Shown here: piece by piece, positions 5,088 to 51,800 of the stretch | Layout of the letters: every line of letters starts with the position of its first letter | How positions within the stretch are numbered: the stretch's first letter is position 1 | Assembly: GCA_973895155.1 (NCBI GenBank) | Contig: OZ316892.1 | Span: 24,003,971-24,067,970 of the forward strand | Length of the DNA stretch: 64,000 bases | DNA from: Marsupella aquatica | Taxonomy: Eukaryota > Plantae > Marchantiophyta | Direction of reading: 5' to 3' | The notes under the pieces: model-generated | What the model saw: only the letters and a program-made list of their open reading frames with translations | Database searches by the model: none | What the model was told of the DNA's origin: nothing | Position numbers and translations under genes: made by a program

Positions 5088-6773
5088 TTAGCACCTATTA
5101 ATAGAAAGACACAAGAAAAAAAAATACACTAGGGGTTTAGGGTGCCAAATACACACCTAGTAGAGTTCGTGGGTGGCTTTTGGTACTGGAGACGAACGAG
5201 CGAGGACGACAACTGGAGGAAGACAAATTCCAGAGAGAATGTGGTTATGGAGGAGTGGACAAAGCTTTCAGATCGAGGACAGCTTATTTCTGTGAGGAGA
5301 TACGGCCACCAGAGAATGCGGTTGTGGAGGAGTCGACAACGCTTTCAGATCGGTGAGCATGATAAATTCCGCCATCGAAGAGTCCTTTTGCAGAGTCAAA
5401 CACAAACTGATCAAACTCGTAGACCACAAGACCGCCCATTGCATCTTTTGCCTGTTCGCTCCAGCGTTAGGAGCATCGAGTTTCGATACGGGAGCTGCAA
5501 ACAAAATATCAAGGGAATTGATGATCGAAAGGAAGCTTCTTGGATCGATTACTGTGCATGCATGCAGACAAGCCGGAGTGCCAGCCGAGACGCCAGCCCA
5601 CCACTGTATCTAGCTCCTTTCTCCTAGCTGCTGAGACCGAGGGCCATCTGGAGAAGGAACATCGTTCACTTGAGCTCTCGCTTGAGCTTTAGTGGATAAC
5701 AACAATAAGAGGGAGTCGAATTCGAGCGACCGCTCGCCTGTTCTTCGGAGAACGAATTCTTGCCATTACAGCTGAGTGGAAGTAGTGCCGAAGGCAGGCC
5801 TTCCTCTTACAGCTATGGTAGAAAGCGGATGTATACTATTAATTGTAGTTGGGCGGTACGGGATGATCATGCATGGCGAAGGAACGTCTTGAATGGAGGT
5901 CAGGAATTGCGGTCAATCATTCGTGGTGATCAACCGGATGTTGTGTCATTCAACTAGCTATTCTCTCCAATTGCTCTAATTGTCCCAGCTCAGGTGTTGT
6001 GAGTGAAGGCAACGGAAAAAATTTTGCCGACCTGGAACTTTTGCCACACGACGAGGTTAATGAGGCCAAATCCTTGCAGGGAATGATGAGGCGTTCAATG
6101 CGGAGCAAAGATAGATTGGAATGCGGGTTAAATATATCCCTGGCATTGCGACTTTGAGGTCCTTATGATCGAGAAAGGGAGCTGCACAGTGGAAATAGAG
6201 AAAAGTCCATTGCAACTGGTTCAAACAAAGCAAAGGAAGACTTGCTAGATCAGCTACAAGGAGGAGGTTCGAGGGTACGTAGTTGGACATCTCACAAAAC
6301 AGGCTACACGCTACAGTATAGGTATCGATCTTTTATAGCTCGTGCTACAAAGCGCGCTCAGCAGCACCTCAGGCCCATTATCTCTGAATTCGAAGCGTCA
6401 GCATTACCGATCACAGTTTCAATACTTGTTGGAAGCCTTTGGGCGGCAACGACCGGCCTGTCTGCAGTATGAAGACAACAGTTGAGAGTTTGACGTGTGG
6501 AAATGAATCTCAAGTTGAACTCTGAAAGCCGAGTAAGATTGCGCACAGTTCTGGCCTAATACAATTGAAGAAGAGTTGCAGCTGCTGCAGGTGGAGCCGT
6601 ATGGGAACGACAGGATGGTTTGATACGGCGTCCTAGCTCTTACAATGGTCCTTGCGTCGACGAGTAGTGGACCTGAACTTAAGTACATTGTTTGGAGCAA
6701 GGATCGGTCGTTACGCACTTCAGATTCTAATTACGCTGGTCGAGCTGTGTCACAGATGACTTTCGAGAGGAAC

Positions 6774-9700
6774 ATGGATCGCGGATCGTCTTATCTCCTG
6801 CTGTTGTGTCTGCTTTTTGCCCTCCTCTCATCGTTGTTACCCTCTTCTGGAGCTCAAATAGTTTCACCGACTGATAAGAACGCTCTATTGCTATTCAAAA
6901 AGTTCGCAGACGAAGGTGGGATGCTGAGTTCATGGATCAATAAAACTGATCCCTGTACGACATGGCAAGGCATTCGGTGTACCGTTATAGTCAGTGGGGG
7001 GGCCGCACGGGTGACTAAGGTCCTTGTTTACAGTTCACAGCTGAACGGAACTATTCCGGAGAAGTCGTTGGGCAATTTGACAGAATTACGAATGTTGGAC
7101 TTGTCAAATAATTCGTTCAGTGGACCGCTTCCGACTGATTTGAATCATCTTAACTTAGTGCAGTTTCGGGCTCAGAATTCTTCTTTTTCCGGCTCATTCC
7201 CTAACATATCTACGAATAGTACGAAGCTTCTTAGGCTGTATCTGTCAGGAAATAATCTTAGTGGTCAGATTCCTCCTCTTACCGGTCTACCGAACTTGAT
7301 GGAATTGGATCTCAGTCATAATTCTTTCCAAGGAAACTTTCCTTCCCTTCCTGTAAGCGCTAATTCTAGTGGCCAATCGCTGAAAAATAGCATTCCGGTG
7401 CCTTCTACATCGGTCGCAACAAGTACAAAGCTTACTTTACTGAACCTATCAGGCAATAATTTGAACGGTTCAATTCCTAATCTGACCGGTCTGCAGAACC
7501 TGGCGACATTGAATCTTAGTCATAACGCTTTTAGTGGACTTGTTCCTACTACCCTTCCTTCCAGCCTTACTACTCTTGATCTCAGTTTCAATGCGTTGAC
7601 AGGAAGCATCCCGTCCGACCTGGCAACCAAGTTTCCAAATGCCTTCCAAGGAGATGCTGGCTTGTGCGGGAAACCAACTAACAACTCATGTGCTCCACCT
7701 CCTGCATCTGCGGGCTCTGGAAACAGCAACTCGACCCCTGGACCAACTAGCTTGCCAACTAGTGGACATTCATCCTCCTCATCAGGGCTCAGCACTCGAA
7801 ATGCAGTATTGATTGCTGCGGGTGCTGTGGTCTTAGTTGGTCTAATACTTGGTGCTGTGAAATACTTATCGTCGAAAAGAGCAGAGAAGAGTGTTCCGAA
7901 GAAAGCTGCTCCAGAAAAGAGCGGTGATAGCAGCGCTGGGATCGGCATGTCATCCATGGGAGGCGATTCTGACAGATCTAAACTTTCTTTTATCGACGAC
8001 AATCAGCAAGGATACGATTTGGAAGACCTGCTCCGTGCATCTGCGGAGATGTTGGGGAAAGGCAGCTTCGGAACTGCTTACAAAGCTGTCATGGAAAGTG
8101 GAATGATAGTTGCTGTCAAACGACTGAGGGATGTCAAAGACGTCCGAAGAAACGAGTTTTCTCAGCACATGACATTGCTGGGCAGGCTGAAGCACCCAAA
8201 TGTCGTTCCACTGAGGGCGTACTATTATGCAAGGGAGGAGAAGCTTCTCATCTACGACTTCATGCCGAATGGCAGCCTATTCTCGCTGCTTCATGGTAAG
8301 CTCCGACTTTCCAACAAATCAGACTCGTGCCTACAGAGGGAGTAAGTTGGTAATGTAGTATACCTTATTATGATATGATGGTGTCCGTGCAGTCTTTCTT
8401 CTTGATTAGCAAAGCCTTGTGGGGGCCATTGGATACATAGTTTTGATTCTCCTATGTATGAGTTTTCATCTAAAGCATTTCAGGATTCATAGAGAAAATA
8501 TTGTAATCTTCGGCTATTCCACCTACTACTTGGAAGCAGCTTTATAGAAGACCACGTACTGCAATCTTCGGCGGGGTTTTCGGTTTATTGAGAAAAATAT
8601 TCCTGTCTTTGAATTCTCCATCGATGAAAAGGGTATCATATAACGTTGCTAACATTTGAGAGAAAACTGCAGTAACTGAACATTTGGATTTAATACTGAT
8701 CACGATTTCATGACTAATGTTATTTTTCCGATTGGGGAATAGGAAGCCGAGGTCCGGGTCGCACTCCATTGGAATGGCCTGCACGCCTCAGCATTGCTCA
8801 GGGCGTTGCTAAAGGCCTCACATATCTGCACCAGGAATGCGGCCAGAAGATTCCTCATGCAAACGTCAAGTCTTCCAACGTCCTCATGGGAAAGAAATTC
8901 GAGGTCTGCATATCAGACTTCGGTCTCGCGCCACTCATGCCAGCACAGATTGCATCACAGCGCATGGCCGGTTATAGAGCTCCGGAATACAGTCAAGCCA
9001 GAAAAATCACATACAAGGCGGATGTGTATAGCTTCGGAATTCTTCTTTTGGAACTGCTAACAGGTGCGTTGTCACACTTGGAGAATTAATTGCTGCGTTT
9101 TCATATGGAATCACTCCAAGTGGTTATAAAATTGAAACAATCAAATTTATGGAGGGCAACACGGGGGGCAACATTGTGAATCTTCCTATCTGCATGCCAT
9201 TCTACTTGAAACGTGACAAATACATGTTCATTGCCTGAACACATTCAAAGACAGCAGTTTCTAGTTATTTTTACGACCTTGGCAGCCTTCGAGGTCGTGC
9301 TGCATAACAATTGTTTTTGCACAACGACGGAGTACGTTTACTGGCAGGGTCGATCACGAACTTCTCGATCAGGACACCAAATTTGATAGCTCCCAGAAAA
9401 TTATGGTTAAAATTTATCTTACGATTCTTTGATGGTTGACTGAGCTCAGGAATATTGGTTACTGATGCAATCAGTAGCTATAGAAAACCAAAATGTCAAG
9501 CTCATCATACGCTTCTTGCATGATTCGATCGATCTGTACTGTGACTTTCTGAAGTACGTGAGAGTACATAGTAATTTTGTGGGCTTCTCTGCTGAATGAC
9601 ACAGGCCGACAGCCGGCGCTGTCTCTCAGTGACAACGGCCTGGACCTCCCCAAGTGGGTACACTCAGTGGTGAGGGAGGAATGGACAGGGGAGGTATTCG

Positions 9701-15743: not shown

Positions 15744-16901
15744 TCAGATTTTTTCAGTCGATTAGGAACTCCATAGAACTTGCTTCAAGCAAAGCGAACA
15801 GCGGATGATTTCCTCTTCAAAGCGGAGCTATTGGAAGAAGATCGGACTCAATCTTCTCACAAATGTGGAGCACACAACCAGGGGCTCATTTCAGTGGAGC
15901 AATGAAGGCCTGAGGTCAAAAACGGAAACAATTGTAAGTGACAGTTTTCAATTTACGTTATCGGGCAAGAGATAAGGTCAATTTCTCAGATCAGTCTTTT
16001 TGATTGTTCTATCGGGACTTGAAACTGAGACACACTTGAGCGCCTCGTCTTTCTAGACGTGTCGATATCAACATCGCTGGATTTCGTCAAATGGTTGAGA
16101 AGTAATCTTAATTTTAATTCTCGTTTTTTTTAGCTCGAAATTTTGGCTATGGCGGATAACTTAATATCAGTCACTTTCAACGAATCGTTTCTCCCTCATT
16201 ACTCCACCGTTTTGCGAGTTCTTTATATCTATCTTGATGCCCTTGAAGTCTAGTTTCTGAATCTGAAATCAGAATTGGATTTCGTCAAAAACTGAGACGG
16301 GAATTCGAGTGAATCCGCCGAGGGGTACTTTCTGCCGCGAGTAGTCGCGACTTCCACGGACGCGCGAGGAGGTCGAAAACTTCGAGGAGGCCTTTTAGGG
16401 CTCGACAGGGCTCGGGCAGGGGGAAGTGCCCCCTGTGAATTTCCTCCACAGGGGCTGTACAAGGGCGGACGGAATTTCCCGAAAAGATTCTTTTTCCAGA
16501 GGCTTAAATTTTTACCGAAGGTCAAAGATTCCGAGCGGCAAACAAAATCGAATCAACTTCAACTTTTGGAGAGGTGTACTTGGGGAAGCTAGGCAAGCAC
16601 TGGTGTGCTCAATTTTGGAAACGCATACTAGTGGAGTCTTTGGCATAAAAGATTCCCTCGAGGGGTATTTATTTCATTTTTTACCCCCTCCGGTCAGAGT
16701 AAAAATTCTCGGCACTCGAGAGTCCGTTTCACAAACCGTTTTCAGCATTTGGAGCGTTACCTTGTGGGCTACACACAGGAGTGATCAGTTTCAAAATTCA
16801 CCAACTTTCATTTTTGGCCTTATTTTCACACCCCGCATCTGAGCATTTGACGTTTATTTCTTGTTGGAAGGCAACTCCACACTACATTTGGCATTCTAGC
16901 G

Positions 16902-19900
16902 ATGGCGACTACTAGGATTGGAGGTCAAAGGTTTGAGGTGGAAAAATTTGATGGTCGGATGGACTATACAATGTGGGAACGTAACGTGAGGGATGCACTT
17001 AGGGCGATGGGCCTAGGCAAGGTACTAAGATCTCAACCCAAGGAGATGGAAGATGATGATTGGCATGATCTTCAGGATCAAGCGGTAAGCATTGTTGGAA
17101 TGTACCTGAAAAACAATGTGAAGAAGCAGTTCGAGGAAAAATCAACACAAACGGTGACGGACTTGTTTCAAGCATTGTGCAACAAGTACTACAAGAAGGA
17201 GATGTCAAACCGAATGTATGCAAGCCTGAAGCTCATGCAATTCAAAATGGCTGATGGAGTCAAGATTCAAGATCATATCGATCAGTTCAATGATCTTGTG
17301 GTTGACCTAGAGAATTTGGGGGAGCATTTGAGCGAAGAAAAGAAAGCCTTACAACTCTTGAACTCAGTACCACCTTCGTACCAATCTTTGTATCGAGTTC
17401 TTCTATTCCGTGATAAGACAACTATATCCTACAATGATGTGGTGAGTGCCCTGTTGACCGATGACATGCAGTCTAAGTTGGTTTCTTCAGCTCATCCTAC
17501 CTCAACCTCATCATCAACAGCACTGTTGGTAGAAAGAGGCAAATCAAGGGAGCCATCTCATGAAAACAAAAGGTTTAACCCACTTCCCATGGAGCGAGGA
17601 AGGTTCCACGACCGATCTTTTGGTAGGAGAAGGTTTAGATCCAGATCTAGATCTCGATCCAAATCACCATCCAAGTCTACTCGTGAGATAAAGTGTTGGA
17701 AGTGTGATAAAGTGGGCCACATGAAGAAGGATTGTCGCGTCAAAGACACATTCAAGGAAGTTGCCGGTTCTTCAGCCCAAGTAGTTGTTCGAGAAGAGGA
17801 TAGTGAAGGATTTGCATTGTGTACCACTTCCCAAGTTGAGGATTGTCAATGGATTTTGGATTCTGTTTGCTCGTATCACATGTGTTATATGCGTGAATTT
17901 TTCTCATCCTACACTCCTATCAACGGATCTGTTTTGATGGGAAATAATCATTCTTGCAAAGTTTTAAGGATTGGATCCGTAAAGATTCAACTACCTGGTG
18001 GCAAGTACTGTACTCTATCAAATGTCAGACACATTCCAGAAATGTGTAAGAATTTGATTTCTCTTGGCTACTTGGATGCGAAGGGTTATCAATGGAGTGC
18101 AACTGATGGGGTGTTAACAGTCACGCATGGATCAACTGAAGTTCTTATTGGCAAGAGGAAAAAAAATATCTATGTCTTGGAAGGCACCACCCTTCCTGTC
18201 GAAGTCAATTTGGTCACATCTCAGGAGGAGAAAATCAATTTATGGCATGCTCGGCTTGGTCACATGAGTGAAAAAAGTTTGGAAATTTTACACAAGCGAC
18301 ATCTTCTACCAGGATTGCAAGCATGCAAGTTGAGTTTTTGTGATCATTGCATTGTCGGCAAGAAAACAAGAACTCCATTTCCGACTGCTATTCATCATTC
18401 TAAAGTTGTACTTGAGTATATTCATTCCGATGTGTGGGGTCCTGCTCCGGTTTCCTCACATTCAGGAAAACAATACTATGTATTGTTTATCGATGATTAC
18501 TCAAGGTTTGTTTGGATTTATTTCATTACCCATAAGTTTGAAGTGCTTTCCATCTTCAAACAATGGGTAGCTCAAGTTGAGACACAGTCTGCAAAGAATG
18601 TGAGATATCTACGATCAGATAATGGTGGTGAATACACCTCTGGCGAGTTCAACATGTATTGTGCAAATAAGGGAATTACTCACCATCTCACAACTGTGTA
18701 CACTCCTGAGCAAAATGGTGTTGCTGAGCAACTCAACCGCACATTGTTGGAGCGAGCAAGGAGCATGTTGAGCCACTCTAAATTGCCACAAATCTTTTAG
18801 GCGGAAGCTGTGAACATTGTTGCTTATCTAGTAAATCTCTCTCCTAGTCGAGCAATTACTTACAAAACCCCCTTTGAGTTATGGCACAATCGACCTGTTG
18901 ATTATTCAAAGCTTAGGGTTTTTGGTTGTGAAGCATATGCACATGTTCCTAGCAACAATAGGACTAAGCTAGATTCTAGAGCCCAGAAATGCATTTTTCT
19001 TGGTTATCAGCGTGAAGTTAAAGGTTATCGGTTGTGGGATCCAGTTGATTGCAAGTTACTTGTTAGTCGGGATGTATCCTTCAATGAAGAAAAATCATTG
19101 AAGGAGGGGGAGATAGATCAATTCCCTACTACTAACAAAGAGCAATCTCCTCCTCTAGAGGATTTAAGGGGAAAGGATGTGTCAGATGAAGAATATGTTG
19201 ACACCACTGTAAGGCAAAACACACTACAATCAGATCAGCCAGAGTCTTCAGTGCGAAGAGGAACTCGCAAACATCAAGCCCGAGAAAGGTATGGAACTTG
19301 GCTTCCTTCTGATCAAGTGGATTTGGATGAAGAATCTATTGATGCATTGGTGACAGAAGATGGAGATCCATCCTCATTTCGAGAGGTCCTAGCTTCTATG
19401 GAGAAGCAACAATGGCAGGCGGCGATGCGCATGGAAATGAAATCACTTCATGATAACAAGACTTGGGAACTCACAAGTCTACCTAGTGACAAGCAGGCTG
19501 TTGACAGCAAGTGGGTGTATAGAAAGAAAGATGGACCCACGGAGGATGCTGAGAAGATATTTAAGGCTCGGTTGGTAGCCAAGGTTTTACTCAACAGAAA
19601 GGTATAGACTACAATGAGGTTTTTTCACCCATAGCAAAGCATTCAACAATACGTTTGCTATGTGCTCTTGTAGTTTTATTTGATCTAGTTTTAGATCACA
19701 TGGATGTTATCACGGCATTCTTATATGGATCATTGGATGAGGTGATTTACATGAGGCAACCAGAGGGTTTTGTACAAAAGGGCAAGGAAAATTTGGTATG
19801 CAGATTGCTAAAATCCTTGTATGGATTAAAGCAGAGCCCAAGGCAGTGGAACAAGCGTTTTGATAAATTTTTGAAATCGCTTGGATTTGTGCGAAGCATG

Positions 19901-20935
19901 TACGATCCATGTGTTTACATCAGGCGTGTGAACAACACAGGTTTTAAGTTTGTCATCCTTGTACTTTATGTGGATGACATGCTCATTGCAACAAAGGATA
20001 GGGGCGAAGTTGATAAGCTTAAGGCCCAACTCAGTTTTGAGTTTAAGATGAAGGACTTGGGCACAGCCAAGAGGATCCTAGGCATGGAGATTGTCAGGGA
20101 TGTGAACAAAGCCAAACTTTGGTTGACGCAAAAAAGATATGCAGAGAAGGTGCTCTCAAAATTCAACATGGCAGATGCTAAGGCTGTGAGTGTTCCTTTG
20201 GCAAGGCATTTCAATATTTCTGCAGCATTTTGTCCATCGGATGCAACAGAAAAAAGTTTGATGTCCAAAGTTCCTTATGAAAGTGCTGTGAGCAGTTTAA
20301 TGTATCTCATGGTATGCACCCGACCAGACATAGCTTATGCCGTTAGCAAGGTAAGCAGATACATGGCAAATCCAGGAAAAATCCGTTGGGAAGCAGTGAA
20401 ATGGATTTTGCGCTACATCAGAGGTTCCACTAAGAAGGGTTTATTGTTTGATGCAAGTTCAAACAATATGAAAGTGCTTCAAGGTTATGTGGATGCAGAC
20501 TACGCAGGTGATCTGGATAAGAGGAGATCAACAACTGGATATGTATTTACACTTGCTGGTGGATGCATTAGTTGGAAGTCTACTCTCCAAAAGTGTGTTG
20601 CAAAGTCTACTATGGATGCCGAGTATGTAGCGGCAGCAGAAGCAGCATCAGAGACCATTTGGTTGAAAAAGCTTGTCAAAGAGATGGGCTTATCACAAGA
20701 TTCTGTGTATCTTCATTGTGACAGTCAAAGTGCAATTTACACTGCCAAGAATCAGGTGATGGATGGCAGGGTAAAGCACATTGATGTCCGCTATTATTTC
20801 ATCCGACAGGCATTATCGGATGATGAATTTGAGCTTGTCAAGATTGATGGAAAGCTTAATCCAGCGGATGCTTTTACCAAAGTATTAGACTCCAATAGTT
20901 TTTCAAGGCATTGTAATTATTTACAAATATTGTAA
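16902..20935 (+). pseudogene. Copia gag-pol polyprotein, disrupted
   Basis: Gag (VEKFDGRMDYTMWE), zinc knuckle CWKCDKVGHMKKDC, protease WILDSVCSYHM, LWHARLGH, integrase D-D-E (HSDVWG / RSDNGGE / NGVAE), RT LYVDDML, RNase H YVDADYAG. TGG>TAG stop at 18798-18800 (F*AEA) and a 1-nt deletion near 19583 (AKGFTQ). Confidence 0.93.
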
Positions 20936-22999: not shown

Positions 23000-25281
23000 C
23001 AATATTTGGACCCAGTCATGACTCGTTCATCCGGATCTTAATCACGCGCAACTCTTTCGAAGAATCCGTGTCAAAATGACCTTCCTCCCGTCCTTTAACT
23101 TACTGCCATCAGATCTTATTAGAAGCAATTCTTTGCTGACAGGAAGCATCCAGCCTCACCTGGCAAGCAAGTTTCGAAGGAGATGCCCACTAACAATTCA
23201 TGTTCTCCAGCTCCTTCTCCAGCTCCTTCTCCAGCTTCTTCACCAGCTCCTGAACAGCTTCATCGTCAACGTTTCAGAGCAGTAGCAATGCAGTATTCAT
23301 CGCTGTGGGTGCTGTGGTCGAAGCTTTACAATTTCTGTGTTGTGAACCACTTCTCGAAAAGACATAAGAAGAGTGTTACGAAGAAAATTCCTTCAAACAG
23401 GTCGGTGGTCCATAGCAGCGCTGGGGTCGACAGACAACCTTCCACGGGAGGGGATTCGGAGAGGCTTTGCTTTGTCGACGAGAGTCAGCAACAATTTGAT
23501 CTGGACGATTTGCTGCATGCATCTGCAGAGATCATGGGGAGAGGCAACTTGGGAACATCTTACAAAACTGTAATGGAAAGTAAAACGATGGTTTCCGTCA
23601 AAAGACTAAGAAATGCCAATGACATTAGCGGAGACGAGTTTTCTCAGCATATGGAATTTCTGGGCAAGCTGAAACACCCAAATATCGTTCCACTGAAGGC
23701 TTACTATTATGCAAGAGCGGAGAAGCTTCTCATCTACGACTTCATGCCCAATGGTAGCCTATTCTCGCTACTTCATGGTAAGCTTAGAGTTTCCACTTTC
23801 AGACTCTTGCGTGCAGAGGGAATTCATTTTGTAATCATAGTTTTGATGATCGAGATCCGTGCAATATTTTTTTTTTAATTAGAAAGCCTTGTGGAGCCAT
23901 GGGATGCGTACTTTTCATTCTCCGACCTACGAGGTTTTCATCTACAGCTCATTATATATGCGCATTTCATTCATCGAGAAAATTTCGTCATCTGTTAGTT
24001 CTCCATCTGTAAGCTAGGAGAACTTTATAATCTATGGGTTTAAGTCTATTAGTTCAACTTCTCCTTCTCTGAACCGAGTGACATACTTCTTCCTAAGAAC
24101 AAAAAACAGTAGCTAGTTGCTTTCTAATTAGATGGAGTGTTGATCACAAGTTTGTTTTTCCGATTGGGGAACAGGAACCCGAGGTCCAGGTCGCACTCCA
24201 TTGGAATGGCCTACACGCCTCAGCATTGCTCGTAGCGTCGCTAGAGGCCTCGCATATCTGCACCAAGAATGCGGCAAGAAAATCCCTCATGGAAACATTA
24301 AGTCCACCAACATCCTCATGGGAGAGAACTTCGAGGTCCGCGTATCAGACTTCGGTCTCGTGCTACTCATGCCATCACAGATTGCGGCACAGCGCATGGC
24401 CGGTTATAGAGCTCCAGAGCACAATCATGCCCAAGAGATCACATACAAGGCGGATGTGTATAGCTTCGGAATTCTTCTTTTGGAACTGCTAACAGGTGCG
24501 AGCTATTATACTGAGTGAATTAATAATTTGGTCCGTCTGCATCTGGAACCCCTAGGATTCCCAAGTCGATTGCGGGGTCGATTGATGATATACACTTGTA
24601 ATCACATTTATGGACCGCAACGTACACTGTCTGCATGCATTCATTGCTACTTAAAATGTGACTCAATGCTTTGCGGGATGCTTTGAACAACAGCAACTTC
24701 TAGTCATCCGTGATCGAGGTTTTTTTTCCACAACCGACGGAACTTACTGTTCATTAAACTGTTTTGACTACGAAATTCTGGGAAATTGACAACCTAGTTC
24801 AAGGATGTTCTAGTTAGGAGTAGATGAAGATGTTGTACTAGTTGGCTGAGCTCATTGAGAATAACTGACCACTGAGTCAATCAGCAGAGAAACCCAAATT
24901 TTAAACTAATGCACAGTTCATTTCATCAAAAGTACGTTTCGTGAATGATTCGATTTTTATTGTCACTTTCTGAACTAAAGACATAACTAAACTTGTGCGT
25001 TTCCTCTGCTGGATGACACAGGCCGGCAGCCGGCGCAGTCGATCCGTGACAATGGACTGGACCTCCCCAAATGGGTACACTCAGTGGTGAGTGCGGAATG
25101 GACGGGGGAGGTGTTCGATCTAGAACTGAAGTCGTATCTGCACGGGGAGGAAGAGATGGTGGCTCTGCTTCAGGTTGCTATGAGCTGTGTGGACCCCGAA
25201 CCTGAAGAACGCCCTGAAATGACTGAAGTTATGGGGCTGCTCGGAGGCATTCGAGGGGGGCGCTCTCGAGTTTACAGCTAA
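23000..25281 (+). pseudogene. Paralogue of the LRR-III RLK: decayed ectodomain and TM, intact kinase exons (open from 23183-23777, 24175-24495, 25022-25281)
   Basis: DNA similar to 7540-9850, including intron ends and the same intron positions. Kinase motifs FDLDDLLHASAE, HGNIKSTN, SDFG, GYRAPE. LRR remnants at 23000-23180 carry deletions. The TM-coding segment (AATGCAGTATTCATCGCTGTGGGTGCTGTGGTC) is out of frame. No signal peptide found. Confidence 0.8.
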
Positions 25282-33176: not shown

Positions 33177-33362
33177 TGTAAAATATGGTGATCAATCCAA
33201 GACAACAATTGAAGTTTTGGGCATCTGCACTCGTGAAGTGATGAATGACGAGGATTTAAGGTATTTCTCCCACATTATGTAAAATATGGTGATCAATCCA
33301 AGACAACAATTGAAGTATTGGGCATCTGCATTCGTGAAGTGATGAATGACGAGGATTTAAGG
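33177..33362. repeat. ~100-bp tandem duplication
   Basis: tgtaaaatatggtgatcaatccaagacaacaattgaag...gacgaggatttaagg at 33177 and 33278. Confidence 0.85.
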
Positions 33363-34540
33363 TTTTCGTGAGTAACCTGCAATACTCTACAGGCAGTCCA
33401 TTTCGACCCACATCTCATTGAGCACTGTATCTCAAGCCTGTAGCTTGGATGGGTTAGTTGGTGAAGGCTGCGAGGATGATAAGGGAGCTGGCAGATATGG
33501 GAGAGTGACAGCGGTGGTACTTCTCTCTTGATCTCTCGGTGTCAGATGCGTTCTACACCTAATGTCACATAACCACAAAAAGCACTACTATAATCAAATT
33601 TCGCTTGAAATATATGTGGGTTGCAGCACAAGGTTTTTGGGTGAACAAGGTTGTGGAATTGTAGTGGGAGAGCTAAATTTACTTGAGAACTACTGTAGGT
33701 TCAGCCAAAGACTCACAATGTTCGAATTACCATCAGTAAATTGGGTCAGACGAGGAATCAAAGCACGGAGGACCCGCATGTCTACAATGGATTTCCAAGG
33801 CTCCAAAGCTCCTCCAAAGGTTGTCATATCTATCATTAGTTTAGTCGTGGCTGGAAACATGCCATTCAAAGTCGCCAGGTCTAGTTTGGTGGAGTACAAG
33901 CTCATTCTAACAGGTTTGTTCCGATGATCAATCTCATTTCAGAAATTGTCTGTCAGAGCGTATGGTTTCAGGAAGAGAAAAATCTTTAAGTCAGCTCCGG
34001 TGATCCCACATTTCTATGTGGGAAAATGAAGTTCGGGCAACTGCATCTAATGTAGATGATGAAAACTATGAATCGGAAGAATGAACATGCTTGCCGGCCC
34101 ATCCGATACATATGACTGCAAAACCAATTTCCCAAGCACTTCTCAAACTCACTAGACATCACTTTACTAGGGTATAGCTCTTTTCTATAACACAATGGCC
34201 TTGCTGCATCTATCTACTACTGAGATGTCTACCTGTGAAAACTACGACACAACCATAATCTCCGTCTATCAAAAGGCCGAGCCCAACAGCTGTAAACTGA
34301 AAACAAAACTAGGGCATTTCAAGAATAATGGCCACACGATTGTTTCTACTCTTGGAAACAGCCACCATATCAGTGGCCTGACAAGATTAATAGCACAAGA
34401 AATCCTTCGAAGCGAGTAGTTATCAAGGAATTAGACGAAGGCTCCTCCAATGGTTTTGGCTTAGGAAGAACGAACCTTTGTCGAGCTTGCACTTACAAGA
34501 CGCGTATGTCTTCCACACAAAACGCCACCTTGTTGCTTGC

Positions 34541-37500
34541 TCACAAGGTCCAAGATGATCTCAACATGAAAGCAGGTATCTGTGTGTCTTTGTCAAGGAT
34601 ATAAACAAGTCCTGGTTGGAGACTGAATCCCCGTCCAGCTCTTAATTTGACGAAGGCCTCCATTTGGAACTGTGAGGAAGAAGGGTCAACGGGGCCATTT
34701 GTAGGAGACACAGATCCATCTTCACCCCAATCGTCACGCTTTCTCCGGCCCATACTCAACCCCCAGTGCACATTTGGCCCTGAGGACTTTGCCAGGCTCA
34801 AGTTCCACTGGAAGTCCTTCCTCTCCAGCTCTTCTAACCACTCCGCCCGTTCTACTTGTGCCCAGCCTCCAATACTGACATTCCCGCCCAGATCCACCTC
34901 TCCAGAAAACGCCACTGACTGCATTGAAGTTCCACCATTACCAAGTAGGCCCCTGCTTTCTGCGTCAGGGCTCCAATGATCTCGCTCCGGGGTACGTACC
35001 TGAGACAAAAACGAGGCACTGCTCGAGGTGGGCAGCAGATCATGGAAAGTGAAGGTACCAGTAGGCTGAGTAGGTCTTGTGATCGTTTTACAGTACACCA
35101 TTGGTCCCATTTCACTCCAGTGAAATCCACTGGACGAAGGTAGAGGGGGACTTGGCCATAGGTCATTCACAGCGGACATTGAAAAGACCATATGCTCACA
35201 CGGCTGGACCATGATTTGTGCAAGTGTGCTGAGACACAGAGGACCAGAGATAAGCGTATCGAGAGCCCTGTTTCCCCATCCCGAAAGAAACTGTGACATG
35301 GATAACATCACACTGTTGCTCCTGAGGCTTGCTCCAATTGCAGACCCTCGGCAGTGTTGATACATGGTTGGGCCACTCCCAGCGAAACTTGTGAAAGCTT
35401 GTCCCTGATTCACAAATCAAAGCCGGTAATAGTTGATACCCTTATCATAAGACGTATGTAACAGATTGGCTGAGGTTCTCATCCAGCTTCAAAACCGATC
35501 ATGAGTTATCGAGAAGGAACAGGAGAATCACTAACCTGCAAGTGGTTGACGGTCTCTGCCATGTCGCCTGCCTTGGCCCCTAGGGGAGCAACCGCCAGGG
35601 ACAGTGCGTCATTGATTTGAGCCACGTAGCTGATTTTCTGCAGACTGATAGGCCCTCCAAGAATACTGCTATCAAGTTCTCCGGAGGCTTGCCCCCCAAC
35701 ACCGCATTGAGTGGTCAGCAAATCATTCTCCCTCACTGGAGTTTCAAATGTGAATCTAACATCCAACCCAGTCAGCAGCCCCGCGTGCTGCAGGGAATTC
35801 CGGGCCAGATTAGTGGTAAGGTCGTCCACAAGCACGTACGCACCTCCTGCGTTCACCTCACCTTTCAGTGTAGTCTTCAACCCACCCGCCAAACCATCCC
35901 CTGACTTCTTGCCACGCCCAGCTCCTGTGTAATGCTCTAGTTTCTCAAGACGTTCTCGAATCTTCAACAGATCTGAGAAGGCTTCCCTCTGCAACCTCCG
36001 CAGTGCACCTGTCTGCATCGATACGTGGAAGTGAAGACATACAATTAATACACGAAAAGGACACAAAATCGCATCTCTTATAGAACCCAATCAGTGCAAA
36101 TTCAGGAAAATTACAGGGTTTCACATCAAAAATCCCAGATCGTATGAACGGAGGACATAACCATGGCATTTCATCTGCAGCTCCTGAGTTTCAACAGGAG
36201 AACCAAAAGAAGGCTTCATAAATCTGAGCCCTAAATCCACGATAGACGGTAAAGCATTGTGACCGAATGCCTCTGCCTGTTCATCCGATTCAATTGTTTC
36301 TAGGTGGCACTTTCATATGGGCAGTCCCTCATTTAACGGGTTCCTCTACCTCAATTCTTCCAGTAAGGAGCATTTTCTTTGATACAACAAAGCCTGCTTT
36401 GAACCTTTTTGCGCGGAGAAACATCTAAAAGATAGGAAGCTCAAATTCGCAACACAGAGAAAAACGAATTTCTGCTAAATGCACAAGTTGACAAGGACGC
36501 TAGACTTGCAGTTGAGAGACGTGCCTCGGAACTTTTGGCGACACCATGTTCAGTTGTTGGGTCTTTGATCATCTGCAGCGTCCGATTAGCAACTTCAGCG
36601 ACCAACTCCCTTTTCCCATCGTCGTCGCCAGATGGTCCTCCTGTTCCCGAGTCTGCTCCACCTGTCTTCTTTCCAGCAAAAGCGTTGACAAGCCCACCAA
36701 GCCAGCTAGAGAAATCCATCCCCTGCTGATGACTCTTAGACTGCTTGCCTTTGCCACCTTCCTGGGCGAACCCCGGAATTTCAGTGATTTTCCCCCTGAT
36801 GGATGAGAACTCCTGAGGAAATTGCTGTGAATCCCTACCCGTCGTGCCATGGACGTGGAAGTAGTCATCATCCCCCCTGAGAGGAGCCTTGCTGAATTCA
36901 TTGCCTTGCCCATAATTCTGATGATAGTGCTGTGGCTGCTTGCCACTGGGAATATGGGTGCTGCTAGGATTGTATTCGGTGCTTCTTCCCATCATCGGAA
37001 AGGCTGCATCTCTTCCCCGACTCTCTTGAAAGTTATTCCCAGAGCCTTCAAGAGAAGAAGGGGGATTGGAAGAACGTTCTTGCGCTCTGCCATCTCCACC
37101 AGCAAAGAAAGGATCCGGCTGGTTATAGCTCCGCGCCATTGGCTCCCGAGGGCCCTCCCTCATGCCATCAAAGGCGACCTCGGCAGCTGAATAGTGGCCC
37201 TGCTTGGGAATGTGCGAGGGAATGTGATGTGCCTCGTCCGGCCCTCTGGCCATCCTCCCTCGGCCTCCCATTCGTCCTCCAATGGGTGCCTCACCATCCA
37301 TAAACTCTCCAGCAGCATTGCTCAAAGAAGCCAGAGGTCTGGCTGGCAGCCTGCCCAAAATTCTCCTCCGAGTGGTGACTGACCTGGGGATGTCTTCTTC
37401 CCGTTTCGTTCCTGGCCCATAGATAAGATCTCCGAAAAAGCTTTCTCCACTACTTCCTGGATCAAACCCTCCATTGTCTCCCCCACCCCCACCACCAGAC

Positions 37501-38216
37501 CCAGATGGAGGTTGTTGCCCATTCCCAATACTACGCCCAATGGAAGCTTGGGCACTGCCAGATTCAATCCCCTTCACAGCCACAGCTGCAGATGTGAGGC
37601 CCACGCTGCCAACAGCATATAGCCACCAACCTGCACCAGCATGAGGACCTCTCTCTGGCACACTACCGTCTCTAGACTCCTCATTATTATTATCGTCGTC
37701 TCCTGTTGATGCCCTAATTGTAACATACCGCCTTCCTTCGCCTTGAGCAGGGCTGGAAGCTAATTCTATGCATATTGATGAATCCTTTCTTGTCTCATTT
37801 CGCAGTTGAGGACCATCATACGGAAAGTTCTTGCCCAGTAGACATCCAGCCAACTTATTGGGGCACTTGGGACCCGATTTGGCGAGCTTCTGAGCAGCTG
37901 TGGTGAGGGTGTATTGATTCCTGTTCAGCTTCTGCGAGGAAATCTCACGAGAGGGTCCCAACTCGTGGTGTTTGATCAGGAGACAGGAGAGGCGTGGGGG
38001 CTGCAGCTGGGGGCTCTTTCTCAACCACTTAATGGTAGACTTTGTGGTGAAAGACCTTTCCCCTTCGAATAGAACCACAAGCTCCCCATCAAGGCCCCGT
38101 GATTCGGCCGATGTCAATGCAGCAGGCGCAGCAGCGTTCCGGGTCTTTCGGTTTGCTAAGGAAAGAGATGATGATGGCGATGGTGGCCGAGGAGAAAATT
38201 TTAGATGTAAATCCAT
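34541..38216 (-). CDS. ~1010-aa protein: plastid-type leader, long disordered region, coiled coil and predicted beta-barrel resembling cyanobacterial SomA/OprB-type porins. Exons 38216-36525, 36012-35536, 35404-34541
   Basis: Three long ORFs joined in frame by a GC-AG intron (GAG|GCACGT...TGCAG) and a GT-AG intron. Motifs LRRLQREAFSDLLKIRERLEKLE, TTLKGEV, VRFTFET...DLLTTQ and C-terminal QMEAFVKL...SLQPGLVYI...MLRSSWTL. The start codon and first donor are inferred. Confidence 0.75.
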
Positions 38217-39269
38217 CCCGAGGAGCAGCCTCAAAAAGTTAAAACTCGGAAAAGGACTACTTGGCAATTACCTCCGGTACGCTTGAAGAGCCTCACCCGA
38301 TTCCGAGTGGTGGTTGAGTTGCAGCAGCAGGCTGGCAACTGACCACAGCTCATCCAAATTCCCAGCAACCTCAGAAAGGTATCTTTGATTGTCCCAGAGC
38401 ACATTGCATCGAACCCCACCTTTAGAGTCCATTCTCCTTCCTAGACAGAACCTGAACAAAGAAAACGGGGTTCGGCCGTGAAAGCGTCAAATCCTCAAGT
38501 TCCTCCTTTCCTACCTGTATGACACATGGTAAGAACTGGAATATGAACTGGAAACTTCTACACAATCTCTGAAATACGGACGACAGCGACCTCGGGGTCG
38601 AGAGGTCATCACGTGCATTAAAGGAACAGGAACAGAGGCGGATCAGTGATTGAAATCTATTTTGAGATGATCCGTCCCTTTCCAAGATAAAAAGAAGCAC
38701 CAGCAAGGTTGCTCCAGATTGGATAATGAACACCACTAAATCGATGAAGACTGCCAAACATCAACAAATACAACAGAGGCATGGAAGAAAACCCTCAACG
38801 TGGTCCCAAAAGAGGTCCTCTAAGAGGCTCAGCCCCCAAAATGCTACACCACAATGCAAAGGCATACCACGACCAAGTCATCCTCATTATCATCGGCGGC
38901 AGCAGCACAGGAAGAAGAAGAACAACGAAAGAGACAATAGAGTGGACATTTGTTGCAACGCAACTCACCGAATGCCGGCCAAAAGAAAATCAACCGCTGA
39001 AAGCTACCGATCACGAGAAAAATCACAAAATTTTCCACCATCGCAGAAAAGCAACCAAATGTGTTGCTAACATGCTAATTGGCTGGCAGAGTGCTGTTCC
39101 GCTACTCTCTCCCCAGTCCCTCCCTTGTTACTGGGCAACAAGATCTCAGCGAGGTCCGTAATAATTGCTACATCTGCAAATCTCGGACGTAAAGACAACT
39201 ACAAAGCGGATCACCCAATCACAGCTCTGTCCACGCCGAATCCTAACTTTTCCGCTTCTGCTTCTACGA

Positions 39270-39639
39270 AAGGCTCCAAAACACCAAAACCCTGCCTCTG
39301 AACTCTGAACGCTCTGAAGTAAAACTTTAGTAGACAAAATGCTCCGCAAGAGGCGCAATTTCAGACGGTAACGGAAACCGAAAGCAGGTGAAGAGACTCA
39401 CAACATGGAATAACAGTGAGTCCGAGGGATTGTGAAGTCGGATTCACCGTGTTTCCACCAAAGGCTCCAAAGCACCAAAACCCTTCCTCTGAACTCTGAA
39501 TGCTCCGAAATAAACCTTAGTGGACAAAATGCTCCGCAAAAGGCGCAATTTCACACAGTGGGGACAACCGAAAGAAGGTGAAGAGACTCGCAACTTGGAA
39601 TACCAGGGAGTCCGAGGGACTGTGGAGTCAGATTCACCG
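39270..39639. repeat. ~190-bp diverged tandem duplication upstream of the porin-like gene
   Basis: aggctccaaa(a/g)caccaaaaccct...gctccgcaa...gaagagactc...gattcaccg at ~39270 and ~39461. Confidence 0.85.
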
Positions 39640-47060: not shown

Positions 47061-48800
47061 TTCACTCATGAGTGTTATATGCACTATAAGAATAGAAAAC
47101 AGAGTTTTGCTACAACAACTTTTAAGTACTTTGCCACTAAAGATATTCTAACTGAAATGAAAATACTGCCACAGTTTTTTTTTGCATTTCCAAATGTGCC
47201 ATGGTTTTGTATATGGATGTCAAGTTCACCAACATTAGCAGGGGCACTATATACTACATCTGTGGCATATTTGTGAATACATTAAAAGCAGTACCAGTAT
47301 TGTAAAAACATATTTAGTGGCAATGTACTTAAGAGCTGTTTGCTACAATCCATCTGGGCTGAAAAGTCTATGCTAGCATTTTGGTAATATGGAGGTCCAT
47401 CCTCCATTCAGCATCACCTTGATTCATTCATTTGTTAGAAAGAACATACAAATATATATTACACTGCCAAAGGACAAAATCACCAAGTTATCAGGAGACA
47501 GGACCAAGAAGGCAGGACCCAATAAAGATGAGAAAACATAGAAACTACACCAAATCAAAGAGAAATCAAATGATCAGAACTTGAAAACCTGCCACCCCAG
47601 TCCCTAGCCTCTAGCCCCTGCAATGTTCCACAGGGCAACCAGCCTGGTACCATGCAGCCCTAGTGTCCCTACCAGCCTATTTTTTAAAGGTTTTTCCCTT
47701 TGTGCCATAGTGGCTAATGTCTTCTGTTGTGAAGTAGAAGATTCTAGAAATATTTCTTATATAATTTTCTTAGACTAATTTATGAACATTGGATTTCCCT
47801 AGATTTTAGCAGAACCATCAGATTCTGGCAAATGGGGTGTATGGCTAGGTGGGAAAGTAGGAAAAAAACCACTTGCTAGTTTTGGCCAAAAGTGGTTGAT
47901 ACTTTCTAGAGGGGTGGAATCTGGCACTCCCTTCCCTTCCCTTCTTCTGGTCACCAGGTTGTAGGGTGTGCTTTGGCATCCCAAAGATTTCCTTGTGTCC
48001 TGCACAAGGAGGGCAAGAGGCAGGCAGGAAGGAAACTTTTGGGGTTACACCAGGGAGTCTCAAACCTTGGAGTCTCAAACCTTGGAGTTGCGGCAAAAAA
48101 AGACTCCACAACTATGAGTTTTGGTCACAGTTCAGGGTACTTTGGTGTACGCCACTTTTTTCCCAGGAATCTGTTGCTGACCACGATCGGAGGCAGCAGC
48201 GTGACATTTGAGACGCCCTATTTGATCTCAAAGTAGCCCCAAGTGTAGTTTTACTCTATTTATGACCTAAAAGTTACACTTGAAATTGGATAACCCTGGA
48301 GGCCAGGTAGCAAAGGGAGCCAAAATCTCATAAATTCCAGACCAAGGTGGTAGGGGCTAATGGTTCATAACCATCCACAGAATTACAAAGAAAAAAGCAC
48401 AAAACATGACATCCAAACCCATCGTCCAGGTTTTGATGGTGGGGGGTTGGGGGCAAGGAACAAGATCCATGAAACCCTTTAGCAAAAAATCCTTTGTCTT
48501 GGTTTGGAAATCCTTCTTGAACCCTAAAGCTTTGCAGAGGAGAAGAGCGATGGAGCAGAGTGAATTCTGACTAGAGCTCTGGATCTCTACTGCAGAATTC
48601 CCACTCTGTGCGAAAGTGGAGCGACGGGAAATTCATGATTGTGAATGAATTGTACGCGATGTCTGTTCCGCAATTTTCTCGTTCGCCATTGCGCATCGTG
48701 TGCTGAAAGAATGGGAGCTTTTGATCCCTATTTGGTCTGCTCCGGGCATGGCCGTGACGGACGGAGGTCGATCTGATCAGACTGATTGGCCTCTAGGGCG

Positions 48801-51800
48801 ATGGCATTCTGGTGTCGACGTGCGAAGCGGGGAGTGAGCTTCGTTCGGAGAATTTCCATCGCAGCAGAAGTACGTCCCTCTGTGTCTCCATCAGGCGATT
48901 TTTGTCGGTCTTCGACTCCGGACTTGAGATTTTCCCAATGGCCAAGAGGAGGAGGAGCAGCTCAGGACAGTTTTCCCTTGCAGCAGCGCAGACATGCTGC
49001 GTTGGATATAATGCAATGGTCGCAATGGAGGTGTTTCGCGTCTGATAGCTCGGTAGGAGGGGCTGCAGGTACTCCGGAGAAAGAGCAGAAGATCGATCTG
49101 GCTCTGTATCCGCCATCTCTGGTGAGGAATTTCTCCATAATTGCGCATGTGGACCACGGAAAGTCGACATTGGCGGACCGGTTGTTGGAGCTCACGGGGA
49201 CGATTCGGAAAGGGCATGGACAGCCTCAATTCTTAGACAAGCTACAGGTTCATCATGACTTACATCTACTCCACTCTTTCCTCAATCGGAATAGTAATTA
49301 TTGAATCGTAATCCATTTCATCCATTGAATGCCATGATGGCCCAGGATTAAAATCTTTCATTTTTAGCTTGCAATGTGACGACAGCAAATTTTAGATGTA
49401 GCAGTGAGTACGAGGTCAAATGTGAAACATTTTAAGAAAATAATCAATGAAGTCATTTTACGAATAAGTTAACAGAAGAAGTGAGAAGAAAGTAGCAAAT
49501 GACGAGTTCACTGCGGGTGCGTAGTGTCAGCCAAATTAAGAATTGTGACAACATAATTTACCTGTTCGCCTTCCACATTTAACTCCTATTGAAGTAAGAA
49601 CTGCAATGAAGGTAATATACTTGTTTGCCTACCACCCTGAATTTTCTGTCAAAAGGAAAAATAATAATATTCACTTTAACTTACCGTGAAAATTTGGATG
49701 AACTCACGGGAACATGCCAGTGAGCTTGACCTGGGATGGTTGTAACTTTTAGATGCAGCAGTGAGGACTGAATGGAACGTGAGTATGTAAGGAAACAATA
49801 AGCTCGGTTAATATACGTAGGACTTGTGAAGAGACCAATTAAGAAGACAAGGAACTTTTATGAAGTGCTGTCATCCCCCTAAATGACCTCTGCGGCTACT
49901 AATTTGAACTGTCTGTCAAAGAAAGTTCTCTACTCAATTGAAATTATTGTGAACTTGCTATAACGTCAAGAGAACAATCGGTCAAGTGAATGATTGTATG
50001 TTTGCTTCAGGGAATGAGTTTAGTGGCTGACAAAGTGTGAATTGACTTTTGGCATTCAGGTGGAGAGGGAAAGGGGGATAACAGTGAAAGCGCAGACAGC
50101 CACAATGTTCTACAGCTACAATCGTGATGGCAGCACAGTGTCGGATGCCACAACCCAAAGATATCTTTTGAACTTAATTGATACACCGGGTCATGTAGAT
50201 TTCAGCTATGAAGTATCTAGATCTCTTGCAGCATGCCAAGGTGTACTTCTTCTCGTAGACGCTTGTCAAGGAATTCAAGCGCAGACGGTTGCAAATTTCT
50301 ATCTGGCATTTGAAGCGGAGTTGTCTATCATTCCAGTCATTAACAAAATTGATCAACCCAATGCCGATCCGGAGCGTGTGAAAGGGCAATTGAAGGCAAC
50401 TTTCGACATTGATCCCGAGGATGTTCTTCTAACTTCGGCCAAAACTGGGGAGGGATTGGCACACATCTTACCTGCTGTGATAGAGAGAGTATCTGAGCCA
50501 AAGGGGCGTCCTGGTTCCCCTTTGCGCATGCTTTTGCTGGACGCATATTACGATGACTATAAGGGCGTTGTTTGCCATGTTGCTGTGGTGGATGGAGCTT
50601 TGAAGAAGGGAGAAAAAATTGCATCAGCATCATCAGGGCAGACCTACGAAGTCACCGATGTTGGGATACTTTATCCCGACCTGACCCCCACATCTACGCT
50701 GTTAACAGGGCAGGTGGGATATGTGGTTACTGGCATGCGTACTACTAAGGAAGCTCGAGTGGGAGATACTTTGCATCATGCACGCCTCCCTGTCGAGTCA
50801 CTTCCGGGTTAGATTCTCAAATTGCAGACTTTCTCTTTCAAAAGTGAAATGGCCTCGATCAGGAACTGGGTTTAGTCTATAGGAATAGGCTTGATGATTA
50901 CCGGTGGGGAGTTTCACGGATTTGGGTTTGGGATCAGTAAAGACATCGACTCAGATGTGCCTTCAATTTATTTGCTTACGCGGGTCCACAGTAAGCATCG
51001 TTTGTTTTCATCATCACGATGCTTACTGTAGATGCTTTCCATTTTGTATCTGACAATAGAGATTCTCTGCTTTGATCCGATCTGCTCTGACAGGATTCAG
51101 GCCAGCCAAGCACATGGTCTTTGCGGGCATATATCCTGCGGATGGATCTGACTTCGATGCTCTCAGTCACGCCATTGAGCGGCTAACCTGTAATGACGCC
51201 AGCGTATCAGTTGCCAAGGAAACCAGCGGGGCATTGGGGCTAGGGTTTAGGTAAGTGCCAGGTGGAAATGATGAATTTTTTAATCTCCAGAATTTTTACC
51301 TTGCAACATAATTTGTCAAGAGGGTAGACGGATATTGTAAAAAAATTCAGAAGGCCAGTCTTCAAGCTGAATCTCGTGAAAGACTCATCTGTTTTTTCAT
51401 CAGGTGTGGTTTTCTTGGCCTTCTTCACATGGATGTGTTCAATCAGCGGTTGGAGCAAGTAAGCGTCTTTTGTTACCCTATGTCTCTCCCATGGATTCGT
51501 CATGGACATCCCTTTTGGCGACTTAAGTATTGAGTTCTGTGTCCTTGCTCTGGTTAGTTGAAAGTTGAAACATACCGATTCCTGCAGATGTTTAATTTCT
51601 GCAAGAGTTGTTTACTCGAGCTAAGTTATATTCAAGAAATCTGAGTCTGACAGCCATGGCTCCAGGAGTTTGGAGCGCAGGTTATTTCCACAACTCCGAC
51701 GGTGCCTTACTTATTTGAGTTTGCTGATGGAAGGTAAAAGGATGTTCGTCTTTATTCAAGTTTTCATGTGTTCACTTCTGACAGAATATTAATTACGATT

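Follow-up and report, generated by a model that had tools for sequence, protein, structure and literature searches.

Does a nuclear gene of the liverwort Marsupella aquatica descend from a cyanobacterial outer-membrane porin, and what would its product do in a plant cell? The question is raised by a three-exon nuclear gene on the minus strand (38216-34541) of a DNA stretch of 64,000 nucleotides (nt), here called the window (GenBank assembly GCA_973895155.1, contig OZ316892.1, positions 24,003,971 to 24,067,970 of the forward strand). The best explanation as a whole, to which we assign a probability of about 0.65, is that the gene encodes a porin descendant devoid of the SLH domain, built as a trimeric stalked barrel and likely acting as a narrow pore in the chloroplast outer envelope. 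Judged from sequence profiles, homology to cyanobacterial SLH/OprB porins (SomA/SomB, Slr1841/Slr1908-type) is in itself close to certain. The protein is a member of the family of Arabidopsis At1g11320 (UP1; NP_172599/Q9SXB7), which is the BUL16 “barrel of unknown localization” of the 2026 COB preprint (10.64898/2026.07.15.738633).

The C-terminal 446 amino acids (aa) of the window protein can be aligned over their whole length with cyanobacterial SLH/OprB (SomA/SomB) porins. In a profile-profile comparison with hhalign, 50 cores from plants and algae, reduced from a set of 84 of full length, matched 78 mostly Nostocales porins with a probability of 99.13% (expectation value, E, 5.5e-19), collinear from the coiled coil through the final residue. 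Controls stayed below 1% (0.52% for the reversed alignment and 0.05-0.16% in five of five column shuffles), which bears out the homology claimed in the original prediction. A second comparison with a broader set of 45 porins reached 99.78% (0.83% reversed), and a third, with a mostly angiosperm alignment, 99.34%. Separate parts of the protein matched as well: the barrel without the coiled coil at 98.25% (reversed 0.09%), the exon 3 part alone at 96% (reversed 0.25%) and the last third alone at 90%.

All four motifs named at the outset are present in the stated order in the minus-strand translation, and each pairs with its named cyanobacterial counterpart in hhalign. The coiled-coil motif (35935..36003) matches the stalk helix of cyanobacterial SLH-porins (segment alone 90%, reversed 3.7%) and is among the most conserved parts of the family, with three positions kept in 50/50 sequences. 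The first-strand motif (35877-35854), the second/third-strand motif (35763-35704) and the last-strand motifs (34666-34610 and 34564-34544) also align with cyanobacterial motifs. The helix preceding the coiled coil (36567..36614) aligns at low confidence with the helix at the end of the SLH region in cyanobacteria. The SLH domain was found missing, as had been claimed: the best E to a cyanobacterial SLH profile was 0.32, Pfam SLH matched 0/38 homologues, and positive controls matched.

Searches of model and genome collections point the same way. Among 18,950 NCBIfam models, por_somb (NF033921, iron uptake porin) was the sole repeated match at low E, found in 4/10 of the first homologues, in 16 of 21 homologues at E<=0.1 (best 5e-13) and in 27 of 38 at E<=0.01. 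The profile of the 78 porins matched 74 of 249 stored proteins at E<1e-3, a set that includes fragments and near-copies, and 0/249 when reversed. The plant profile matched 50 of 301 genomes of the cyanobacterial phylum, where 30/30 loci checked were SLH-porins; in E. coli K-12, the sole genome sampled outside this phylum, nothing was matched at E<=1. A plasmid search returned only 2 of 72,556 records at E<=10, both of them cyanobacterial porin genes (weak, E 0.03 and 3). In the ESM Atlas, cyanobacterial OprB porins were the nearest named clusters for At1g11320 (0.93, 182 shared features).

Other results weigh against this derivation. Identity in the profile alignment is only about 18%. The curated por_somb cut-off of 100 bits was never reached, the best plant score being 48.5 bits and that of window exon 2 12.1 bits (E 0.054); window exons 1 and 3 had no match to this NCBIfam model. 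Single sequences scored poorly against the cyanobacterial profile (spliced window protein E 0.064, At1g11320 E 0.023), and the case therefore rests on family profiles. With at most four candidates scored per genome, 251 of the 301 genomes of the cyanobacterial phylum gave no match. Pfam OprB (PF04966), suggested earlier as a check, was found in 0/38 homologues at E<=0.01 and in none of the window exons (cyanobacterial control E 6e-68); Pfam as a whole offered nothing relevant for the three window exons or the scanned homologues, and sequence searches of PDB chains were empty. The companion check on the iron-uptake-porin model had a divided outcome, with matches at low E for many homologues that all stayed under the cut-off. 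Because all 38 scanned representatives fall below it, they are not bacterial por_somb members, and the window protein is a descendant of por_somb and not a member. With por_somb porins (SomA/SomB, Slr1841, Slr1908) it shares collinearity from the coiled coil to the last strand and an identical predicted order of 16 strands. It differs from them in having no SLH domain, in its score below the cut-off, in its nuclear, intron-containing gene and in a C-terminal residue that is usually L instead of F.

We also considered whether the similarity is generic to barrels, or whether its donor was a bacterium outside the cyanobacteria that had an OmpM-type porin. The low profile identity would fit, as would the structural matches described below, which favour neither OprB nor OmpM1 over other porins. 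OmpM-type proteins are, moreover, widespread in Terrabacteria according to PMC10628300. On the other hand, por_somb alone was matched repeatedly at low E, the coiled coil matches although it is no part of the barrel, loop positions agree between the plant and cyanobacterial models, the only plasmid matches, weak as they are, lie in cyanobacterial porin genes, and E. coli porins were unmatched. Taken together, this makes a generic or differently donated barrel improbable, and descent from a cyanobacterial porin is preferred.

The three exons, when joined, make one open frame of 1010 aa. Exon 1 (36525..38216; 564 aa; minus strand, as for all features of the gene) contains a long N-terminal extension, is covered by contigs of run X1 and resembles the full-length Riccia protein P0059 (E 6e-14). 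Exon 2 (35536..36012; 159 aa; 40% identity to At1g11320) encodes the coiled coil, predicted strands 1-5 and the start of loop 3, and exon 3 (34541..35404; 287 aa and the stop codon) encodes the remainder of loop 3 and predicted strands 6-16 up to the C-terminus, with 59% identity to Riccia P0001 and 24% to At1g11320. Intron 1 (36013..36524; 512 nt) is of the GC-AG type, with a non-canonical GC donor, and intron 2 (35405..35535; 131 nt) is GT-AG. Support for splicing comes from X1 contigs that contain both joints, the first being 36012/36525; this run derives from a related organism and is only guessed to be RNA, and at the first joint the intervening stretch is marked as not known. Translation probably starts at the sole Met among the first 305 residues, with an in-frame stop just upstream and no joint there in the X1 contig. 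The reading of exons 2 and 3 in the original prediction stands; it covered these two exons only, and the 564 aa of exon 1 are now added to the same frame. Plant nuclear DNA is indicated by the introns and by two other features of the window, an LRR (leucine-rich repeat) receptor kinase and a copia element.

A further intron near 38270 was considered and rejected, since an X1 contig continues across this position without a joint. In the same region a 54-codon ATG frame (38432-38268, minus strand), whose stop lies in frame with and just upstream of the exon 1 frame, is a possible upstream open reading frame (ORF) in the leader; the X1 contig spans it without a joint.

Structure prediction supports a porin-like barrel, as had been proposed. 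AlphaFold2 (AF2), run with 24 sequences on Riccia P0001, which is 61% identical to the window protein in the tree alignment, gave a helix at residues 3-61 followed by a 16-strand barrel, with a mean local confidence (pLDDT) of 73 and a global score (pTM) of 0.66. A model of a cyanobacterial porin (pLDDT 78) shows the matching order of 5 strands, a helical loop, 4 strands, a long loop and 7 strands. Foldseek matched the Riccia model to OmpT, chitoporin, OmpM1 and OprB, with E between 1e-10 and 3e-8. In VIA, the best 13 matches were all porins, tied near the top (Z 19.7-21.9), including OmpM1 (Z 21.1; root-mean-square deviation, rmsd, 3.1; 267 aligned) and OprB (Z 20.3, rmsd 3.0, 245 aligned), followed by maltoporin (17.8) and by barrels of the Omp85 type at no more than 15.5. 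A similar build is known from OmpM1 of Veillonella parvula (8BYM), a 16-strand trimeric barrel with a coiled-coil stalk, which differs in that it retains SLH and tethers the cell wall (PMC10628300); identity is only 8%.

Trimerization was modelled with three copies of residues 76-407 of the Erythranthe protein P0312, an angiosperm member represented by its barrel only, without the stalk. The trimer scored 0.63, compared with 0.00 for the best of three controls, with contact agreement of at least 86%, partner pLDDT of at least 72 and an interface made of strands 1-5 and the last strands; this supports a trimer without establishing it. The mark used here was calibrated on two copies, and it was passed by 21/30 microbial and 17/29 eukaryotic self-pairs and by 0/23 single chains; among eukaryotic self-pairs without an older solved relative only 1/7 passed. 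Two points count against the structural part of the explanation: fold and trimer were both predicted on homologues rather than on the window protein, and the trimer score may stem from likeness to solved porin trimers. We consider a trimeric 16-strand barrel in the outer envelope very probable.

The window protein and At1g11320 are orthologues. Pairwise comparisons gave E 1e-17 and 5e-27, the two fall in a common clade, and 16 strands are predicted both for the Riccia homologue and for BUL16; the BUL16 representative PIA58738.1 (P0326) is matched by the profile of the At1g11320 family. Named members include angiosperms, Taxus, Welwitschia, ferns, mosses, Riccia, Closterium, Mesostigma, Chlorokybus, Tetraselmis, Cymbomonas and Myrmecia; a wider search gave 314 representative matches, the best 150 of which were considered. 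The family thus spans green plants and extends beyond the Magnoliopsida-only range published for BUL16, and the full barrel is retained throughout angiosperms. In a quick tree of 53 rows, the window protein is sister to a Riccia sorocarpa protein (support 99) and seed plants form one group (100). The order follows plant phylogeny, which is consistent with vertical descent. With cyanobacteria as the sole outgroup, the tree, which follows the phylogenetic check proposed earlier, does not address the donor, and this, too, has to be set against the derivation argued above.

The family is also intact in the parasitic plants Orobanche, Striga and Phtheirospermum (P0303, P0341, P0027), the first of which is non-photosynthetic, and its role is hence probably not tied to photosynthesis. 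In one homologue of 1331 aa (P0096), the N-terminal part includes an RNase H-like block of retroelement type, probably the result of a gene-model fusion.

The central link to SomB is old but overlooked. It was printed in 2011 (PMC3045335), where SomB was given as a homologue of At1g11320 with an HHomp probability of 100% and a chloroplast barrel was favoured. The earlier impression that the link had gone unrecognised was thus mistaken. In 2019, UP1-GFP (green fluorescent protein fusion) was located unambiguously in the chloroplast envelope, like the outer-envelope protein SFR2, with an enrichment factor of 8.0 (PMC6601204); in AT_CHLORO, At1g11320 is 100% envelope (supplement to PMC6601204), and UP1 is employed as an envelope marker in PMC13263057. 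For the Arabidopsis orthologue, proteomics and GFP agree with the plastid-envelope location originally put forward. A table in PMC6601204 lists At1g11320 with “no similarity to characterized protein”. In the COB preprint, BUL16 is defined as a barrel of 16 strands and unknown location that occurs in Magnoliopsida only, with PIA58738.1 as its representative; the main text makes no mention of OprB, At1g, Q9SXB7 or NP_172599. Our literature search, with most subscription journals outside its reach, found no paper that links the SomB, UP1 and BUL16 threads or tests function. New here are the identity with BUL16, the range across green plants, the predicted trimer and the glycine-rich extension.

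We know of transmembrane barrels from outer membranes only, and this speaks against placing the protein in the inner envelope. The wider possibility, that the barrel resides in the mitochondrial outer membrane, in both organelles or in the inner envelope, draws on several entries that count against the chloroplast outer envelope: the supplement to PMC6601204 files At1g11320 under “Inner Envelope Membrane” and quotes TAIR as “mitochondrion, plastid”, and its abundance was low (7 spectra, in 2/3 envelope samples). Mitochondria were also left open in PMC3045335, and no location was assigned in the COB preprint. PMC8836251 is uninformative here, as it yields no match for At1g11320 and none for At3g57990 either. 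Against another membrane stand the envelope signal of UP1-GFP, alike to that of SFR2, the AT_CHLORO value and the beta-signal match, which PMC3045335 judged not genuine. We consider such a location unlikely, and the outer rather than the inner chloroplast envelope would be the site of the protein.

A different identity altogether, GDSL esterase/lipase, is suggested by the names that source databases give to At1g11320 and some orthologues; the label was used in preprint 10.1101/813725, where the protein departs from the envelope in the cold. No GDSL family match was found in any scanned member, including P0090 of the Arabidopsis cluster, and the predicted porin-barrel fold, which is not alpha/beta, effectively rules a lipase out.

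The porin descendant is distinct from the eight named OEP classes, a claim that agrees with the COB preprint. OEP21/24/37/40 and TGD4 are likewise barrels of the plastid envelope, and this preprint sets BUL16 structurally apart from all of them. No cyanobacterial sequence matches are reported for OEP21/24/37/40 in preprint 10.1101/2025.06.18.660430, in contrast to the clear matches of the At1g11320/BUL16 family. The COB preprint also describes BUL22, a second unassigned plant barrel (22 strands and a plug), which might have a traceable cyanobacterial ancestor as well.

The most evident difference between the window protein and At1g11320 precedes the coiled coil, where the former has 567 aa, including a glycine-rich stretch, and the latter 40 aa. 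After a Ser/Pro/Ala-rich, transit-peptide-like start there is a hydrophobic segment (37575..37631; aa 196-214), which may have a part in sorting, and then a stretch with 9 Gly in 12 aa (37467..37502; aa 239-250), which resembles the polyglycine (polyGly) envelope-sorting signal of Toc75. Among 31 seedless and algal sequences, 12 of which are named or from the window and the rest assigned by tree position or resemblance, at least 90 aa precede the coiled coil in 30 and at least 6 Gly occur within 12 aa in 27, compared with 22% of shuffles. In the angiosperm-profile set (101 scored of 110), the median extension is 40 aa and 0/101 reach 100 aa or the Gly threshold.

The polyGly signal is apparently unique to Toc75, according to PMC5147994, which also gives for this outer-envelope barrel a transit peptide, a hydrophobic segment and polyGly, an order similar to that in the window protein. 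Toc75 is, however, an Omp85 protein, which the window protein is not, and the extension of the latter is far longer; in homologues of the chlorophyte clade, the Gly stretch lies ahead of the hydrophobic segment, unlike in Toc75. The pattern has exceptions that speak against a sorting signal common to seedless plants and algae. The Gly stretch is absent from Chlorokybus, Myrmecia, one Sphagnum model and one moss-clade protein; Taxus P0016, with an extension of 246 aa, lacks it as well; and P0106 has 8 Gly in an extension of 74 aa. By analogy, a sorting role as in Toc75 may be proposed for the Gly stretch.

Bringing these lines together, the gene would have reached the nucleus from the plastid ancestor ahead of the diversification of green plants. 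Import of the protein in seedless plants and algae would rely on a transit peptide and a glycine-rich sorting signal as for Toc75, the signal being lost in seed plants. The protein would insert into the outer membrane with its stalk toward the intermembrane space and assemble, as predicted, into a trimer with a coiled-coil stalk, through whose narrow pore small solutes or inorganic ions would pass the chloroplast outer envelope passively. Tethering of the wall, the other half of the ancestral role, was probably lost along with SLH. That the protein is a conducting pore is likely by analogy with its bacterial relatives; no conductance or mutant data for the plant protein were found in the literature searched, and this counts against the pore. 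Selectivity for ions or iron is doubtful: these substrates are suggested solely by analogy to Slr1841/Slr1908, cyanobacterial porins known for permeation of inorganic ions and iron.

The main competitor keeps the same ancestry and fold and assigns the protein chiefly to tethering or scaffolding: the stalk would hold on to the inner envelope, to plastid peptidoglycan or to a partner in the intermembrane space, with the pore closed or incidental. The long extension is found in lineages with plastid peptidoglycan, which we count in favour of a tether, together with the strict conservation of the coiled-coil motif and the low abundance in the leaf envelope. Bacterial relatives are, besides, dual tether-channels (PMC10628300; Kojima and Okumura preprint). 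A tether is harder to reconcile with the loss of the wall-binding SLH domain, the poor conservation of the extension sequence and the whole barrel kept across angiosperms. We regard it as a minority explanation, clearly behind the pore yet ahead of the other alternatives.

The porin descendant bears on two published accounts. According to a 2020 preprint (Kojima and Okumura), extant plants have not conserved porins of the Slr1841 type, which make up about 80% of the outer-membrane protein of cyanobacteria, and its model of early endosymbiosis is built on porin loss; preprint 10.1101/2025.06.18.660430 left open whether ancestral channels were lost or merely diverged. The At1g11320 family would be a surviving porin descendant. 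BUL16 thereby gains an ancestry and a published envelope location, and the lipase mis-annotation is corrected. The surprise is tempered by the SomB link having been printed in 2011. A named Arabidopsis gene and bryophyte orthologues are suitable for tests of channel function, plastid metal entry and polyGly sorting. A broader and speculative proposal is that green plants retain all three core cyanobacterial outer-membrane barrels, i.e. Omp85 (Toc75/OEP80), LptD (TGD4/LPTD1) and the OprB-type porin (At1g11320 family). The porin would then be the only solute pore of the envelope whose cyanobacterial pedigree can be traced, as well as an iron or ion route across the outer envelope, and its seedless and algal form a second barrel with Toc75-like polyGly sorting, dropped by seed plants.

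Elsewhere in the window, a Ty1/copia-type retrotransposon (16851-20935, plus strand; gag, integrase, reverse transcriptase) is spread over three ORFs, broken by a stop and a frame change. An exon of an LRR receptor-like kinase lies at 6624-8345 and a second kinase-domain fragment at 23123-23878, both on the plus strand, and an EF-Tu-type GTPase extends across two ORFs at 48786-50812 (plus strand). At about 33179-33363, a direct repeat of ~83 bp was seen by eye in two near-identical copies about 100 bp apart. Nearby segments 33841-33883 and 39322-39449 match many other contigs, which suggests dispersed repeats.

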